DNA from: SAR202 cluster bacterium bin22
GTDB lineage: Bacteria; Chloroflexota; Dehalococcoidia; Lucifugimonadales; UBA3495
Direction: 5' to 3'
NCBI GenBank assembly: GCA_002238505.1
Contig: MPMM01000001.1
Location: forward strand, 973,811 to 1,037,810
Length of the DNA stretch: 64,000 bases
Both the position numbers and the translations under genes were made by a program. The notes under the pieces are model-generated. The model was given only the letters and a program-made list of their open reading frames with translations. It made no database searches and had not been told where the DNA came from. Shown here piece after piece: positions 6,455-49,544 of this stretch. The first letter of the stretch is position 1. Each line of letters begins with the position of its first letter.

Positions 6455-7180
6455 ATGACACCAATCTTCCGCAACGTTCTCAAATCGGCAGTTGACCTGG
6501 TCCTGCCCACCTATTGCCTGGGCTGCGGAAGCCAGGGCGACATTCTCTGTCACACCTGTGTAAGCAGTCTGCCCCGGCTGGCCCCTCCCTTTTGCGACAT
6601 TTGCTCAGATCCGGGGATTGCAGGAATTTGTCGAATCTGTCGCCGCCAGTTGCGGTTCTCTACCGCAAGCCTCGCGGGGATTAGATCGCCGTATATCATG
6701 GAGGGGACACTGAGGGAAGCCATCCACAGCTTCAAATACCGGAACGCTCGGATAGCGGCTGAGTGCCTGGGAAACCTGCTGGCAGACTACTTCAGAAACA
6801 ATTGCCTGCCCGGTAACGTTCTGGTGCCTGTGCCGCTCCACCACAGCAAGCTGCGGCACCGTGGCTACAACCAGGCAGAATTGCTGGCCAAAGCCCTGGG
6901 CAACTCGTCCGGCCTGCCAGTCGAAACCGGCTTGCTGACCCGGTCCCTGAATTCTCCGCCCCAGGCTGGCTCCACCGATGTCAATGAGCGTAGAGACAAC
7001 ACCGCCGGCGCTTTCAACTGCCGAACCGATGCTTCCGGCCTTGCCTGCATCCTTGTGGACGACGTCTGCACCACTGGCAGTACCCTGGGCGCATGCGCCG
7101 ACGCTCTGGTAAAGGCCGGCGCCTCTACCGTGTGGGCCCTTACCCTGGCCCGTGAGACGCTCGATCCCGCGACCAAGTGA
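6455..7180 (+). CDS. ComF-family protein (phosphoribosyltransferase domain)
   Basis: The track ORF starts at 6284 but overlaps the Nudix gene. The ATG at 6455 gives MTPIFRNV..PTYCLGCG...CHTC...CDIC zinc-finger N-terminus and a C-terminal PRTase loop ILVDDVCTTGST. Confidence 0.8.
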   Translation: MTPIFRNVLKSAVDLVLPTYCLGCGSQGDILCHTCVSSLPRLAPPFCDICSDPGIAGICRICRRQLRFSTASLAGIRSPYIMEGTLREAIHSFKYRNARIAAECLGNLLADYFRNNCLPGNVLVPVPLHHSKLRHRGYNQAELLAKALGNSSGLPVETGLLTRSLNSPPQAGSTDVNERRDNTAGAFNCRTDASGLACILVDDVCTTGSTLGACADALVKAGASTVWALTLARETLDPATK

Positions 7181-7198
7181 GCCTGACTTCACTTGAAC

Positions 7199-7858
7199 CT
7201 ACGGTTCGCTCCTGTCCCAGTCGGGCAGGGCGTGGTAGCCCACAAAGGGTATGTCAACTTTGGCTTCCAGTCCCTGGGCCTTCTTCAGCCGCTGGATGTT
7301 GTAAAGGTGGGTCAGGTACTCAAAGTAGCGATGACGGAAAGTAGCTTCCAGGGTTATGTAACCCCAGGGTGGGTCGTTGGGCTCTTCCCTGACCCCCGAG
7401 GGATGAGCATTCAACCAGTGAAGCTGACCACTTACCGAACTCCGCAACTCCCTGCTTCGCATTGAGTCCACCGTCTCCGATTCCAGCACCGAACAGGCGA
7501 AGTCCAGGCTCTTGCGAAGCACTGCAAAGATGGACTCCACCTCCCAGTACTTCGACTCGTCCAGCCGGCGGTCGTAGGGCGATTCGATGATCCCGTCCCA
7601 GTCGTCAATTTCCGGCAACCCGTCGCTGAACAGGTTCTCTCCCCATCGCAGCAAAAGCCACCGGAAGTCTCCCGATGCCACGTGGCTCAGGTTCCGGCGG
7701 ATGCTCCATTCGCTCCACCCACATTTGTCCGACTCGAAGTCCAGCTGTTCGTCGGTAAGGCCCGCGAGTTCTTCCCGGTACATATCGTAGATTTCCTGAC
7801 GGAACTGGGGAAAGAGGACTATGCCTGGCGAGTTGTCGGTAATTTCCTGCTGGGCCAT
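7199..7858 (-). CDS. Hypothetical protein, DinB-like
   Basis: 219 aa. LAGLTDEQLDF...WSIRRNLSHVA resembles DinB-superfamily helix-bundle proteins. The assignment is tentative. Confidence 0.55.
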   Translation of the reverse strand: MAQQEITDNSPGIVLFPQFRQEIYDMYREELAGLTDEQLDFESDKCGWSEWSIRRNLSHVASGDFRWLLLRWGENLFSDGLPEIDDWDGIIESPYDRRLDESKYWEVESIFAVLRKSLDFACSVLESETVDSMRSRELRSSVSGQLHWLNAHPSGVREEPNDPPWGYITLEATFRHRYFEYLTHLYNIQRLKKAQGLEAKVDIPFVGYHALPDWDRSEP

Positions 7859-7919: not shown

Positions 7920-8504
7920 CTATCCGGGCCGCACCCAGGTTTCGGACCAGGCCAGGCAGGCGCTGCTGCTCTGCTTGTCTCCCCTCATTTCCAGCCAGGG
8001 CTCGCCTTCGACCGGATTGCCGTTAATAGTCAACTGGGCCCGGCGTGACGGAATAAAACAGCTGTACACACCATGGGGGCGTCCTGGGACGCTGCCCGCT
8101 TCTACGCGCAGCATGTAGGGCTCAAGGAAGTCGTACCAGGTCAGGTGTATTTCGTCGTCGTCACTGAGCACTTTTTCCGTCCAAAAGGAACGAACGTCCC
8201 CCGATTTGCTGAATTCCGCGTCGCTGACGGGAATGCTTTGGTCGGCGAATTCAGGAAACAGCAGGCTCTCTATCTCTTCCTGCAGCCAGCGGGCCAGCGC
8301 GATGTTGTCGGCGTAGATGCGAACTTCGTTGTCCATCTCATCGCTCTTCATGAAAAGCACGTGGCCCGCCCCGGCGGGGGACCACAGCACTCGCCAGTGG
8401 CTGGTACGGGTAGCCTGGTTGTTTCCGCCATCGTGAGATAGGCGTATGAACGAGTTTTCGCCGGTGACTCTTACCTGGTTAGGGTCAGTGGGATTGGTGG
8501 TCAT
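7920..8504 (-). CDS. Hypothetical protein
   Basis: The track ORF extends to 8711, but ATG at 8504 is preceded by GAGGGGG SD and avoids overlap with the upstream gene. 194 aa starting MTTNPTDPNQVRV; no family recognised. Confidence 0.6.
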   Translation of the reverse strand: MTTNPTDPNQVRVTGENSFIRLSHDGGNNQATRTSHWRVLWSPAGAGHVLFMKSDEMDNEVRIYADNIALARWLQEEIESLLFPEFADQSIPVSDAEFSKSGDVRSFWTEKVLSDDDEIHLTWYDFLEPYMLRVEAGSVPGRPHGVYSCFIPSRRAQLTINGNPVEGEPWLEMRGDKQSSSACLAWSETWVRPG

Positions 8505-8652
8505 GTGTTGCCCCCTCAAAATAGTTCGCTGGGAGAATAACTGATCGTGAAAAGTTTTTGCCCGAGGGCAAACAGCACAGGAATCTCTGACAATCAAGCG
8601 GGGCCACCCTTGCCAGAGCGGCCCCACCAATTTCCTGCTTCGTCGGAAAGCG

Positions 8653-18792: not shown

Positions 18793-19080
18793 ATGCCAGC
18801 CTTCGTAGTCCTGGCCGCAATGAAGGGTCGCTTCGTTTCCCAGCACGGGAACCACTACGACAACTTCCAGATGATGGGCTATTCCATTGCGGAGAACCCG
18901 CATCAGGCGGTCACCAACTTCTTCGACCAGCCACCCTATCCCATTCGCTGGGAAGACGTGGAATACCTCTGGGCCGAGCAACTGGCGGATGCCTTCCACA
19001 CCGGCCACCATGGCGAATACGAGCGGGTGTACGTTGACTCGTTGCGCCGGCGGTGGGAGTCTCCCGGCCCCGGGGCCTGA
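18793..19080 (+). CDS. Hypothetical small protein
   Basis: 95-aa ORF with genome-like GC3 bias and sensible composition (HGNHYDNFQMMGYSIAENPHQ...). No SD seen and no family recognised. Confidence 0.4.
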   Translation: MPAFVVLAAMKGRFVSQHGNHYDNFQMMGYSIAENPHQAVTNFFDQPPYPIRWEDVEYLWAEQLADAFHTGHHGEYERVYVDSLRRRWESPGPGA

Positions 19081-23477: not shown

Positions 23478-23554
23478 TGGTAGCGCATAGGGGATTCGAA
23501 CCCCTGATCTCCGCCTTGAGAGGGCGGTGTCCTGGGCCGCTAGACGAATGCGCC
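23478..23554 (-). tRNA. tRNA-Glu (anticodon CUC), CCA encoded
   Basis: Hand-folded from the minus strand: GGCGCAT/ATGCGCT acceptor, anticodon stem CCGCC/GGCGG with loop CTCTCAA, T-arm AGGGG-TTCGAAT-CCCCT, then ACCA. It closely resembles the canonical tRNA-Glu body. Confidence 0.9.
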
Positions 23555-33955: not shown

Positions 33956-34113
33956 GCAACATTACCTGCAATTGGATAGCCTGCGCCCCTCGATGGAATT
34001 GACCGGGGACGCGCCTGCGCCACCAGAAACCAGTTTCGCAGAGCAAACAAGAAGGAGCCACCGCCCGATGGGCGATGGCTCCTGTCTTTACCGGAGTACC
34101 GTTCAGGTTCCTG

Positions 34114-34701
34114 TTACCCGGCTATGCCCTGCTGGAGCTTGTCTATAATTTCTTCCACCGTAGCCTGCTGCCATGCCTCGGCTCGGGTTGCCATGCGAGT
34201 GCGCCGTTCCCGGCCAAAGTCCTGGTCGTTAATGTCGGGGTTCTCCGCGCGAATGGCCTCCTCTATCTCTTTTGACTCCTTCTCCGCCACTTCAGGCTTT
34301 TCGATCCAGTGAAGAATGTAGCGGTGGTCGGAAGTGTAGAAAACGGCTGTGGGGATGGACATCCACTGCCCTTCCTTCAGGAATTCGTTCATAATGTCGT
34401 GATGCTGGTCGCGAGGGAAGACCCGCATATCCCAGCCGGCAGCCTCTGCCATGCGGGCCAGTACGGGCAGGCCCCGCACCACATCGCCGCACCAGTCCTC
34501 TCCCAAAACCAGCAGCTTTGTGGGGCCGTCGGAGTTGGCTGCAAGTTCCTTTAGAGAAGCTTCGTTTTCGGGAGTTACTTTGAAAATCTCATAGAAACCG
34601 TCCATCCGGTCTTTGTTGACGTTTATCTGCGCCATGTAGTCGGCATAGGTGAATCCCTCTTCAAACCGTTGAGGGGTCACAACGCTGGTATTGCTGGCCA
34701 T
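34114..34701 (-). CDS. Thioredoxin-fold family protein (Thioredoxin_9-like, WCGD motif)
   Basis: ATG at 34701 has a strong GGAGGAAGG SD (track start is 34734). LVLGEDWCGDVVRGLPVLARM and SIPTAVFY (cis-Pro) are thioredoxin-fold hallmarks. Confidence 0.75.
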   Translation of the reverse strand: MASNTSVVTPQRFEEGFTYADYMAQINVNKDRMDGFYEIFKVTPENEASLKELAANSDGPTKLLVLGEDWCGDVVRGLPVLARMAEAAGWDMRVFPRDQHHDIMNEFLKEGQWMSIPTAVFYTSDHRYILHWIEKPEVAEKESKEIEEAIRAENPDINDQDFGRERRTRMATRAEAWQQATVEEIIDKLQQGIAG

Positions 34702-34788
34702 TACCTTCCTCCTGCTCTCTACCTGATTTCTCATTGGGCGTGTTGCTTGTACCTTGCTGGTCCGGCCAACTGGCCGCTAACCGATTTC

Positions 34789-35004
34789 TCAACCTCGGTG
34801 ACCTTCGAATCCAATCTCAACGCTGCCGTCGGGATAAACTATGATGGGTACAGAGTCTCCAAAAAGCAGAGCTTCGTCCAGAGTGTCCTGGCTCTGATCA
34901 ACCCGTTTTTCCTCGTATTGAATGCCCTGGCGACGCCACGCGTCGCGCAAACGGTCGGAGGCGGGTCAAACTGTTAGCGTGTAAACCACCGGAATATCGG
35001 CCAT
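34789..35004 (-). CDS. Candidate selenoprotein: glutaredoxin-like protein with in-frame UGA (Sec) at codon 13
   Basis: Absent from the ORF track. Hand translation from ATG 35004 (GAGGAGG SD 7 nt upstream) gives MADIPVVYTLTV-[TGA]-PASDRLRDAWRRQGIQYEEKRVDQSQDTLDEALLFGDSVPIIVYPDGSVEIGFEGHRG-stop. The TGA at 34966-34968 sits where the CxxC/S Cys of glutaredoxins lies, and a hairpin follows. Confidence 0.6.
34930..34946 (-). promoter_or_regulatory. Candidate bacterial SECIS hairpin
   Basis: Minus-strand GCGACGC-GUG-GCGUCGC is a perfect 7-bp stem with a G-containing apical loop. It starts 19 nt after the in-frame UGA, and the loop is 26 nt from the UGA. Confidence 0.5.
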
Positions 35005-35062
35005 TCTTCAACCTCCTCTGCTTGACTCCCTGGGAGCCTCGCCCCTCAGAAATGTTTGAGCC

Positions 35063-35091
35063 ATTCTACATCGGCCCGGCGTTGGTGTCAT
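35063..35091 (-). promoter_or_regulatory. Candidate promoter for the Sec-glutaredoxin-like gene
   Basis: Minus strand ATGACA-17 nt-TAGAAT, about 60 nt upstream of the ATG at 35004. Confidence 0.45.
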
Positions 35092-41432: not shown

Positions 41433-41580
41433 CCCAGGGTCTTTCGATTATCTTGGTAGAGTATCTTCCACCGTTCGCCCTGAGCCCGTCGAAGGGCCGC
41501 CCGGAATGATTCTCCAGGCTCACCGCGGACGGACTCGAGGAGTTGCCACCGACAATCGAAAGACCCTGGGAAACCACCCA
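41433..41580 (+). repeat. Structured palindromic repeat, copy 1
   Basis: The 134-nt core (41436-41569+) aligns without gaps to 49411-49544 with 12 mismatches by hand count. The termini cagggtctttcgatt and aatcgaaagaccctg form a 15-bp stem. Confidence 0.8.
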
Positions 41581-49234: not shown

Positions 49235-49320
49235 TGGTGCCGAAGGTCGGATTCGAACCGACACGGGGTTGCCCCCACCGGTTTTTGAGACCGGCGCGTC
49301 TACCATTCCGCCACTTCGGC
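49235..49320 (-). tRNA. tRNA-Leu (anticodon CAA), type II with long variable arm, CCA encoded
   Basis: Minus-strand fold: acceptor GCCGAAG/CTTCGGC, anticodon stem CCGGT/ACCGG with loop CTCAAAA, variable arm TGGGGGCAACCCCGTG, T-arm TCGG-TTCGAAT-CCGA, then ACCA. Confidence 0.9.
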
Positions 49321-49408: not shown

Positions 49409-49544
49409 CCCAGGGTCTTTCGACTATTGTGGTAGAGTCTCTTCCACCGTTCGCCCTGAGCCCGTCGAAGGGCCACCCGGAATGGTTCTCCAAGCTCACT
49501 ACGAACGGCCCCGAGGAGTTGCCACCGACAATCGAAAGACCCTG
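49409..49544 (+). repeat. Structured palindromic repeat, copy 2
   Basis: Same orientation and ~91% identical to copy 1. Lies in the gap between tRNA-Leu and rpmH. The track ORFs 49234-49545 and 49384-49659 are read-through artefacts of it. Confidence 0.8.

Follow-up and report, generated by a model that had tools for sequence, protein, structure and literature searches.

A glutaredoxin-like gene of a SAR202 cluster bacterium with two UGA codons that are most likely decoded as selenocysteine

Results

An unannotated gene of 75 codons

The stretch of DNA analyzed here (64,000 nucleotides of contig MPMM01000001.1 from SAR202 cluster bacterium bin22, referred to as the window) contains a small glutaredoxin (Grx)-like gene, which an earlier note, made from the sequence alone, had proposed to encode a selenoprotein. 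Translation, profile matches and orthologues in 80 genomes confirmed that the flagged stretch is a real, unannotated Grx-like gene of 75 codons plus a TAG stop codon (34777-35004, minus strand, as are all codons, signals and hairpins and the partner gene described below). Its two UGA codons, at positions 13 and 72, are most likely decoded as selenocysteine (Sec).

The gene had been described as 71 codons long and ending at 34789. Read in this way, the minus strand gives MADIPVVYTLTV, a stop and PASDRLRDAW...EGHRG, i.e., an ATG at 35004, 12 codons, a TGA, 58 codons and a second TGA. This end had to be corrected: the second TGA is evidently read through and the stop codon is the TAG at 34777-34779. 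With both UGAs translated as U the product is MADIPVVYTLTV-U-PASDRLRDAWRRQGIQYEEKRVDQSQDTLDEALLFGDSVPIIVYPDGSVEIGFEGHRG-U-EIG. The first Sec candidate, UGA13 (34966-34968), is the first residue of the redox motif (U-P-A-S) and is aligned with an invariant Cys. The second, UGA72 (34789-34791), formerly read as the stop codon, is followed by codons 73-75 (34780-34788), which encode a Glu-Ile-Gly tail.

The ATG, the first TGA and the Shine-Dalgarno sequence GAGGAGG (35012-35018), located 7 nt upstream of the ATG, can be read directly from the sequence, as the earlier note had reported. A GGAGG-type core is found at an equal distance from the ATG in the 19 loci inspected, one of which has GGAG. 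The promoter candidate ATGACA-17-TAGAAT was likewise recovered at 35063-35091 in a consensus scan (10/12 matches) and is a consensus match only; most of the 19 loci have a -10-like box (TGTAGAAT/TGTAAAAT) upstream of the Grx-like gene.

It had been claimed that the in-frame TGA hides this gene from the open reading frame (ORF) track, and this holds: the ORF list contains only a 53 amino acid fragment with a TTG start at this locus (34789-34950). Six independent assemblies of the organism (NCBI GCA_034421815.1, two from JGI, two from ENA and one from Logan) carry the identical 228-nt gene, both TGAs included, and none of the six public gene calls for them covers it, leaving a hole where it lies. 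Since these six assemblies are identical, a sequencing error, which the earlier note had wanted checked, and a private pseudogene are excluded.

Homologues with and without TGA at codon 13

A protein search yielded 242 homologues, 120 of them listed. Among the listed proteins, which share up to 86% identity with the query, 114 have a length of exactly 71 residues, and the name of one refers to the SAR202 cluster. All 120 end at Gly71 and none carries the tail; they are therefore all truncated. Because gene callers cannot report TGA-containing copies, homologues were also searched at the DNA level. A scan of species-representative genomes gave 186 confirmed matching stretches, of which 80 loci were analyzed, all from Dehalococcoidia/Chloroflexota metagenome-assembled genomes (MAGs). 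A metagenome pattern scan, which required TGA at codon 13, added two TGA/Ser copies and one outlier. The resulting 84 sequences comprise 36 forms with TGA13 and Ser16 (window included; 35 distinct sequences among the Sec13 forms), 47 forms with Cys13 and Cys16 and one form with TGA13 and Cys16; a form with Cys13 and Ser16 was not present among these 84 genomic and metagenomic sequences. Since their gene context (a Thioredoxin_9 gene and an ABM gene, see below) is conserved, the Sec13 and Cys13 forms are orthologues at one locus.

UGA13, Ser16 and the hairpin within the coding sequence are linked

Codons 13-16 encode C-P-A-C in all 114 database homologues examined, and 47 of the 80 species-representative genomes also have Cys at both codons 13 and 16. 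The remaining 33 have TGA at codon 13, and every one of them has Ser16, encoded by TCC, TCG, TCT or AGC. The UGA thus lies at the first-Cys position, as had been predicted; CPxC and CPxS, offered by the earlier note as alternatives, are not interchangeable, since the relatives have C-P-A-C without exception and Ser16 is confined to forms with UGA13. Because both motif cysteines differ in the window (TGA-P-A-S versus C-P-A-C), a pseudogene has to be considered (see Discussion). Codons 2-12 of the TGA forms show 3458 synonymous versus 644 non-synonymous pairwise codon differences, so the codons upstream of UGA13 are under purifying selection, and the conservation expected on both sides of the UGA was observed.

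Downstream of UGA13 lies a perfect hairpin (34930-34946) with the stem GCGACGC/GCGUCGC and the loop GUG (34937-34939), a candidate selenocysteine insertion sequence (SECIS) located inside the coding sequence and termed SECIS-1 here; it can possibly be extended to 34928-34949. The hairpin begins 19 nt and its loop 26 nt after UGA13, confirming what the earlier note had read from the sequence; the stem has 6-7 bp and the minimum free energy (MFE) is -12.7 kcal/mol. The published model of bacterial SECIS (bSECIS) elements asks for a loop of 3-9 nt, a stem of 4-16 bp, a G among the first two loop nucleotides, a UGA-to-loop spacing of 16-37 nt and an MFE of at most -7.5 kcal/mol (PMC13188914). SECIS-1 passes all of these, in line with the SECIS-like geometry originally proposed, and so does the second hairpin described below.

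The stretch GACCGGTTGCGCGACGCGTGGCGTCG after UGA13 is almost invariant across the TGA forms. In all 36 Sec13 forms 6-7 of the 7 SECIS-1 pairs are kept, compared with 0-6 in the Cys13 forms, so the hairpin is conserved in the orthologous TGA loci as the selenoprotein proposal expected. Third-position entropy in codons 14-26 is 0.49 bits in the Sec13 forms versus 1.32 bits in the Cys13 forms; in the other codons it is 1.23 and 1.26 bits, respectively. A Mann-Whitney test for lower values in codons 14-26 gave p = 2.8e-6 for the Sec13 forms and p = 0.72 for the Cys13 forms. Residues D17-Q26 are invariant in the TGA forms and include five variable positions in the Cys forms. UGA13, Ser16 and SECIS-1 are thus a strictly linked package, present in a subset of the orthologues at one locus, and their joint recurrence greatly exceeds what chance would give.

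In a neighbour-joining tree (171 nt, noisy) the Sec13 forms with TCN-encoded and AGC-encoded Ser16 fall into two clades, each beside Cys forms. TCN and AGC codons are each one step away from TGC. Because SECIS-1 is identical in both clades, the data suggest that U13 and SECIS-1 arose once and that Cys16 was then lost twice, or else that recombination took place.

The outlier from the metagenome scan (L081; contig LXNJ01033792.1, 557-772) has TGA13 together with Cys16, a Cys-type downstream sequence and 3/7 hairpin pairs, and it retains UGA72, the EIG tail and the second hairpin. It is either the product of a nonsense mutation or read error, or else a U-P-A-C intermediate.

UGA72 is followed by a conserved tail and a covarying hairpin

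The region downstream of Gly71 was searched because the best profile matches are to Uxx-star proteins (see below) and because GGT-TGA is found there without variation. Codon 72 is TGA in 84/84 homologues. Sense-codon variants at this position (TGG, TGC, TGT, CGA) were not found in the 84 sequences, and a Cys72 homologue is absent from the 84 loci and from the 120 listed database proteins. The three following codons vary synonymously only: codon 73 is GAA in 59 and GAG in 25 sequences, codon 74 is ATC (62), ATT (12) or ATA (10) but never ATG, and codon 75 uses all four GGN codons. Pairwise comparison of the tail codons yielded 735 and 1189 synonymous differences in the two form classes and not a single non-synonymous one. 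A stop codon follows the EIG codons at exactly the same position in 84/84 sequences, being TGA in 60, TAA in 14 and TAG in 10 of them.

A second hairpin, SECIS-2 (34763-34776; stem CGGCC/GGCCG, loop AGUU at 34768-34771), lies in the 3' untranslated region and abuts the stop codon, with a possible lower stem (34759-34782). In the window it has 5 bp plus the lower stem, a spacing of 17 nt and an MFE of -13.3 kcal/mol. The loop starts 17-18 nt after UGA72 in 73/84 sequences; 46 distinct stems occur, with one G of the loop never varying. As two registers were seen among the 3' hairpins, they could not be described by one column structure, and covariation was counted in 31 distinct same-register sequences. 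Here, 92.3% of the cells are paired, versus 20-49% when the partner is slid, 7/8 pairs have changed on both sides, and 0/500 shuffles reach the observed values.

The coding constraint on the EIG codons, the fixed stop codon and the hairpin together show that codon 72 is translated throughout the family. Both UGAs lie inside sequence that is under protein-level purifying selection, and UGA72 with its covarying hairpin is universal in the family; as far as can be judged from these sequences, Sec72 is apparently obligate. The selenoprotein proposal is therefore supported in its essence, having missed the second Sec codon, the G-U-E-I-G tail and the SECIS past the true stop codon.

The codon for Gly71 (34792-34794) is GGT in 84/84 sequences; third positions of the other Gly codons in the gene are free to vary. 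Unlike the codon for Gly71, that directly upstream of UGA13 is not frozen. The frozen GGT before UGA72 may reflect a context requirement for Sec insertion versus termination.

Fold and family membership

With U written as C, the protein matches the Pfam family Glutaredoxin (PF00462) with 25.3 bits (gathering score 22.9) over residues 6-56, spanning codon 13. The gathering score is reached only with read-through of TGA13; the part after TGA13 alone matches no Pfam family. Most database homologues carry a precomputed PF00462 match, and the candidate cis-Pro strand V-P-I-I is invariant in them; the glutaredoxin-fold hallmarks named in the earlier note are indeed present. The AlphaFold model of a Cys homologue with 85% identity (pLDDT, the predicted local distance difference test score, of 74.6) has a beta-alpha-beta-alpha-beta-beta arrangement (beta 6-9, alpha 14-26, beta 31-34, alpha 39-46, beta 54-56, beta 62-64) and lacks a C-terminal helix. 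A Foldseek search with this model returned mycoredoxin-1 (Mrx1) with a template modelling (TM) score of 0.78, NrdH with 0.74-0.75 and cGrx1 with 0.71 (range 0.70-0.78), while sequence comparison on its own gave no more than weak Grx and NrdH matches.

The best NCBIfam matches are the models for Uxx-star Grx-like (seleno)proteins, all below cutoff. Against Uxx_star the protein scores 42.1 bits (cutoff 66), with residues 6-73 on profile positions 2-69 of 70; the matched ranges would be consistent with U72 falling on the U position of the profile. G71-U72, invariant in the 84 sequences, corresponds to the GUXX-type Gly before a C-terminal Sec. The tail is U-E-I-G-stop in 84/84 sequences and thus has three residues after Sec, versus two according to the name Uxx-star. 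Because of this U-x-x-x-stop tail and of scores below all cutoffs, the SAR202-type family is not counted as a member of Uxx-star.

Membership in two further families was rejected. For the NrdH-redoxins (TIGR02194) the score is 16.5 bits (cutoff 85.75) and there are no nrd genes among the neighbours; for the mycoredoxins it is 23.3 bits (cutoff 89.5) and the gene context is unsupportive.

The partner gene and the neighbourhood

The gene directly downstream (34114-34701) encodes a 195 amino acid protein of the Thioredoxin_9 family (PF14595, E = 5.6e-26) with the single-Cys motif W-C-G-D-V and ends with TAA. The note had seen here a thioredoxin-fold gene with WCGD on the same strand, and the profile match bears this out; the gene occupies this place, on the same strand as the Grx-like gene, in 80/80 genomes. 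Its motif does not covary with the Sec13/Cys13 state, W-C-G-D-V being found in both classes. A terminator-like hairpin (34053-34083; 14-bp stem with 10 G-C pairs and a T-rich tail; consensus match only) closes the two-gene unit.

The neighbours of the Grx-like gene are ABM, aminotransferase, MFS, Thioredoxin_9 and pur genes, with the ABM gene located divergently on the 5' side in related genomes. Between 24114 and 44701 the window holds housekeeping genes: a purine-biosynthesis cluster (PurS, SAICAR synthase, adenylosuccinate lyase, PurE, PurD, GuaA) lies on one side, and the other has MinCDE, an MFS transporter and a class-III aminotransferase; genes of selenium metabolism were not found within this part. 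One relative (L012) lacks the ABM and aminotransferase genes that other genomes have there and carries upstream of the Grx-like gene two tRNA-Glu(CTC) genes 1.2 kb apart (7190-7266 and 8468-8544 of that locus). The tRNA-Glu(CTC) gene of the window is located at 23478-23554. In addition, the window contains a 136-nt direct repeat (91% identical, blastn) at approximately 41433-41568 and 49409-49544, the second copy lying about 90 nt from a tRNA-Leu(CAA) gene (49235-49320).

UGA as a stop codon in the window

The 39 long ORFs of the window end with TAG (18), TAA (15) or TGA (6); for a window with 57.5% GC, we take this to be an under-use of TGA. The TGA at 7178-7180 ends one of the long ORFs, as the earlier note had stated in arguing that TGA is an ordinary stop codon elsewhere, and that at 19078-19080 closes a stop-to-stop ORF of 108 codons. 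A global reassignment of UGA was rejected because TGA ends these ordinary ORFs (6/39) and is also the true stop codon of the Grx-like gene in 60/84 relatives.

Discussion

Two selenocysteines or another explanation

We consider it highly probable that the locus is a two-gene redox operon, the first gene of which encodes a minimal glutaredoxin/NrdH-fold protein of 75 residues with two selenocysteines. Several observations weigh against this interpretation. ARAGORN and Rfam (64-kb window), ARAGORN (35 loci) and tblastn using E. coli SelA, SelB and SelD (window and 83 related loci, approximately 1.6 Mb) detected no tRNA-Sec, selA, selB or selD; this search is uninformative, since the loci are all drawn from a single neighbourhood. 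The window yielded no further selenoprotein gene: a coding-score screen over every in-frame TGA returned three weak candidates without a redox motif, and the six TGA-terminated long ORFs have neither a conserved-looking tail nor a well-placed hairpin. Given the high GC content of its surroundings, the folding energy of SECIS-1 is ordinary (z = -0.01 over 54 nt and -1.4 over the 25-nt core); not being significant, it was not used as support. SECIS-1 is so nearly constant that it offers no compensatory substitutions; its outermost pair lacks conservation, and the stem carries an A.C mismatch in one subclade. The UGA-to-loop distances are unlike (26 nt for SECIS-1 versus 17-18 nt for SECIS-2), and neither hairpin has an Rfam family, permissive thresholds over the Grx-like gene giving chance-level miRNA and snoRNA matches only. 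The protein stays below the curated cutoffs of every Uxx-star model (42.1 versus 66, 28.7 versus 72, 32.8 versus 100 and 22.5 versus 97 bits), and the redox relay with a diselenide outlined below is pure inference.

Comparative and literature evidence suggests that the organism of the window decodes Sec. In a study of the sponge Aplysina aerophoba, SelA, SelB and SelD were present in 5/5 SAR202 bins (PMC5649159, Tables 2 and S4), and among the entries of the database BSepDB are Dehalococcoidia MAGs for which 46-49 selenoprotein genes are predicted (PMC13326102).

The lack of Sec machinery in the window and the 83 related loci would also agree with read-through of both UGAs independently of SelB and the Sec pathway, e.g., by near-cognate insertion of Trp, Cys or Arg stimulated by the hairpins. 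Downstream structures can stimulate the read-through of stop codons. We nevertheless regard this as highly improbable: UGA13 is aligned with the catalytic Cys, forming a classic Cys/Sec pair, both hairpins fit the bSECIS model, loop G and spacing included, and in the curated families closest to this protein, which are selenoproteins, U occupies the same two positions. Moreover, the 84 sequences contain no sense codon at position 72, although this would be an easy route if an ordinary residue sufficed, and the sponge SAR202 bins do have SelA, SelB and SelD (PMC5649159). It is likewise conceivable that only UGA13 is recoded and that UGA72 is a real stop codon, the conserved sequence and hairpin beyond it acting as a non-coding element, e.g., by stabilising the transcript or by attenuation. 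Gly71 is indeed the last residue in every public gene call and in the 120 listed database proteins, hairpins after stop codons are common and the energy z-score of SECIS-2 in the window is modest (-1.5), yet we give this explanation very little credence. In the nine bases following the TGA, variation is confined to third positions and is synonymous, with Ile never encoded by ATG; an in-frame stop codon lies at the identical place in 84/84 sequences with all three stop codons in use; the hairpin is not followed by a T-run and has a SECIS distance and an invariant loop G; and the Uxx_star profile aligns through TGA72.

The two remaining alternatives concern the copy with TGA13 itself, and both are next to incredible. 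The change from TGC to TGA requires a single base, both active-site cysteines are gone, and the metagenome outlier resembles a plain nonsense mutation or an erroneous TGA, so that the window copy might be a decaying glutaredoxin gene with a nonsense codon and C16S, or a sequencing error. The identical gene in six independent assemblies, the package of TGA, Ser16 and hairpin in 33 other species-level genomes, purifying selection on both sides of TGA13 and the retained Shine-Dalgarno sequence and start codon effectively refute this already, and decay does not produce frozen synonymous sites downstream of TGA13. The ORF list, for its part, would allow the N-terminal part of the Sec13 clade to be dead, with the 53-residue ORF starting at TTG 34950 giving the functional product. 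Such a fragment would be without beta-1 and without the redox motif, and no Pfam family matches it. The ATG, the Shine-Dalgarno sequence and codons 1-12 remain conserved in every one of the 35 distinct Sec13 sequences, where changes are mostly synonymous.

A possible mode of action

On the interpretation as a double selenoprotein, translation would start at ATG 35004, and SECIS-1, itself in frame, would recruit SelB with Sec-tRNA(Sec) at UGA13, placing Sec at the nucleophilic position of U-P-A-S. SECIS-2, just past the true stop codon, would direct a second Sec insertion at UGA72, yielding the tail G-U-E-I-G; the residue inserted at both UGAs would thus be Sec. The flexible C-terminal Sec72, on a tail that follows beta-4 where larger glutaredoxins have a helix, could cooperate with the active site, forming a selenenylsulfide with Cys13 in the common form of the protein and a U13-U72 diselenide in that of the window. 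Electrons or substrate might be exchanged with the presumably co-transcribed single-Cys Thioredoxin_9 protein, and the resolving Cys16 may be dispensable or harmful once Sec occupies position 13.

More speculatively, U13 and U72 could form an intramolecular diselenide centre that evolved in place from a Cys13/Sec72 selenenylsulfide, Cys16 being lost twice independently (to TCN and AGC codons) as counter-productive. The family would then be an obligate-Sec72 relay with a Thioredoxin_9 partner and no conventional glutaredoxin, expressed from a 228-nt mRNA with an in-frame and a post-stop SECIS at different spacings. We put this forward tentatively and regard it, taken as a whole, as rather doubtful.

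The findings have several consequences. Publicly available 'glutaredoxin' relatives are cut four codons short and miss the probable catalytic Sec, presumably in every genome of the family. Orthologues at one locus that have either Cys13/Cys16 or Sec13/Ser16 with a SECIS are a natural experiment on the change from Cys to Sec: the resolving Cys is lost each time, apparently by two routes, and a SECIS within the coding sequence costs approximately 13 frozen codons. One short mRNA with a translated and an untranslated SECIS at different spacings is a compact test case for the spacing rules of SelB. A natural diselenide in a minimal Grx fold would, if true, be a rare kind of redox centre. Finally, an obligate Sec codon implies that Sec decoding and a selenium requirement are widespread in SAR202-type Dehalococcoidia, which are abundant in the ocean and in sponges.

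Comparison with known systems

In mammalian thioredoxin reductase a flexible C-terminal Gly-Cys-Sec-Gly tail is thought to shuttle redox equivalents with a buried dithiol. The protein described here is similar in carrying Sec on a flexible C-terminal tail after Gly; the reductase, however, has an unrelated flavoprotein fold and its Sec pairs with the adjacent Cys of the tail, while the SAR202-type tail contains no Cys and the partner would be residue 13. With regard to the position of SECIS-2, Arner and colleagues are said to have found in 1999 that, in E. coli, a bacterial SECIS located past the stop codon of a recombinantly expressed gene is functional. SelL, reportedly described by Shchedrina and colleagues in 2007, is a diselenide selenoprotein of aquatic organisms with a UxxU motif. 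Bacterial Prx-like UxxU forms exist as well (PMC2398784). SelL and these Prx-like forms share with the SAR202-type protein a thioredoxin fold and two Sec able to form a diselenide, but their Sec residues are three positions apart, compared with 59 residues and two separate SECIS elements here.

The best structural matches, with TM scores of 0.74-0.78 and a similar length, are NrdH-redoxins and mycoredoxin-1 (4fiw, 4hs1, 1h75, 2lqo). A CxxC at the start of helix 1 is common to them and the SAR202-type family; they contain no Sec and keep the C-terminal helix that the SAR202-type family lacks. The selenoprotein Grx1 of Clostridium (Alkaliphilus) oremlandii is likewise a small Grx with Sec as the first residue of the redox motif and an in-frame SECIS, and the Cys-form structures of Clostridium cGrx1 (7c10, 7c12) match with a TM score of 0.71 (sequence E = 0.02). 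The selenoprotein is listed with one Sec only and a UxxC motif that includes a resolving Cys (PMC13188914, citing Kim et al., 2011) and has, unlike the SAR202-type protein, no C-terminal Sec tail (PMC13188914, table).

The closest relatives are the Uxx-star Grx-like (seleno)proteins (NF041212) with UXX-star families 1-3 (NF041114, NF041211, NF047338), a comparison that rests on the model names and on one review table (PMC13188914). These proteins share the minimal Grx fold of about 70 residues and a Sec near the extreme C-terminus after Gly; because this Sec adjoins the C-terminus, their SECIS must lie past the stop codon. UXX-star family 1, the 'Distant Grx-like protein 1' from the GOS (Global Ocean Sampling) survey, has a UxxT motif and two Sec (PMC13188914), and thus also has a second Sec in an N-terminal U-x-x-T/S redox motif. 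The SAR202-type family differs in having three residues rather than two after the C-terminal Sec, in its motif, which is C-P-A-C or U-P-A-S instead of UxxT, and in having been seen so far in Dehalococcoidia/SAR202-type Chloroflexota only. Binding of a metal or metalloid has been proposed as a role of UXX-star proteins (PMC13188914), and by analogy the SAR202-type protein may share it. The double-Sec Grx-like architecture as such is already catalogued as UXX-star family 1 (PMC13188914); the in-place switch from Cys13/Cys16 to Sec13/Ser16 among orthologues and the apparently obligate Sec72 look new as far as the available sources show.

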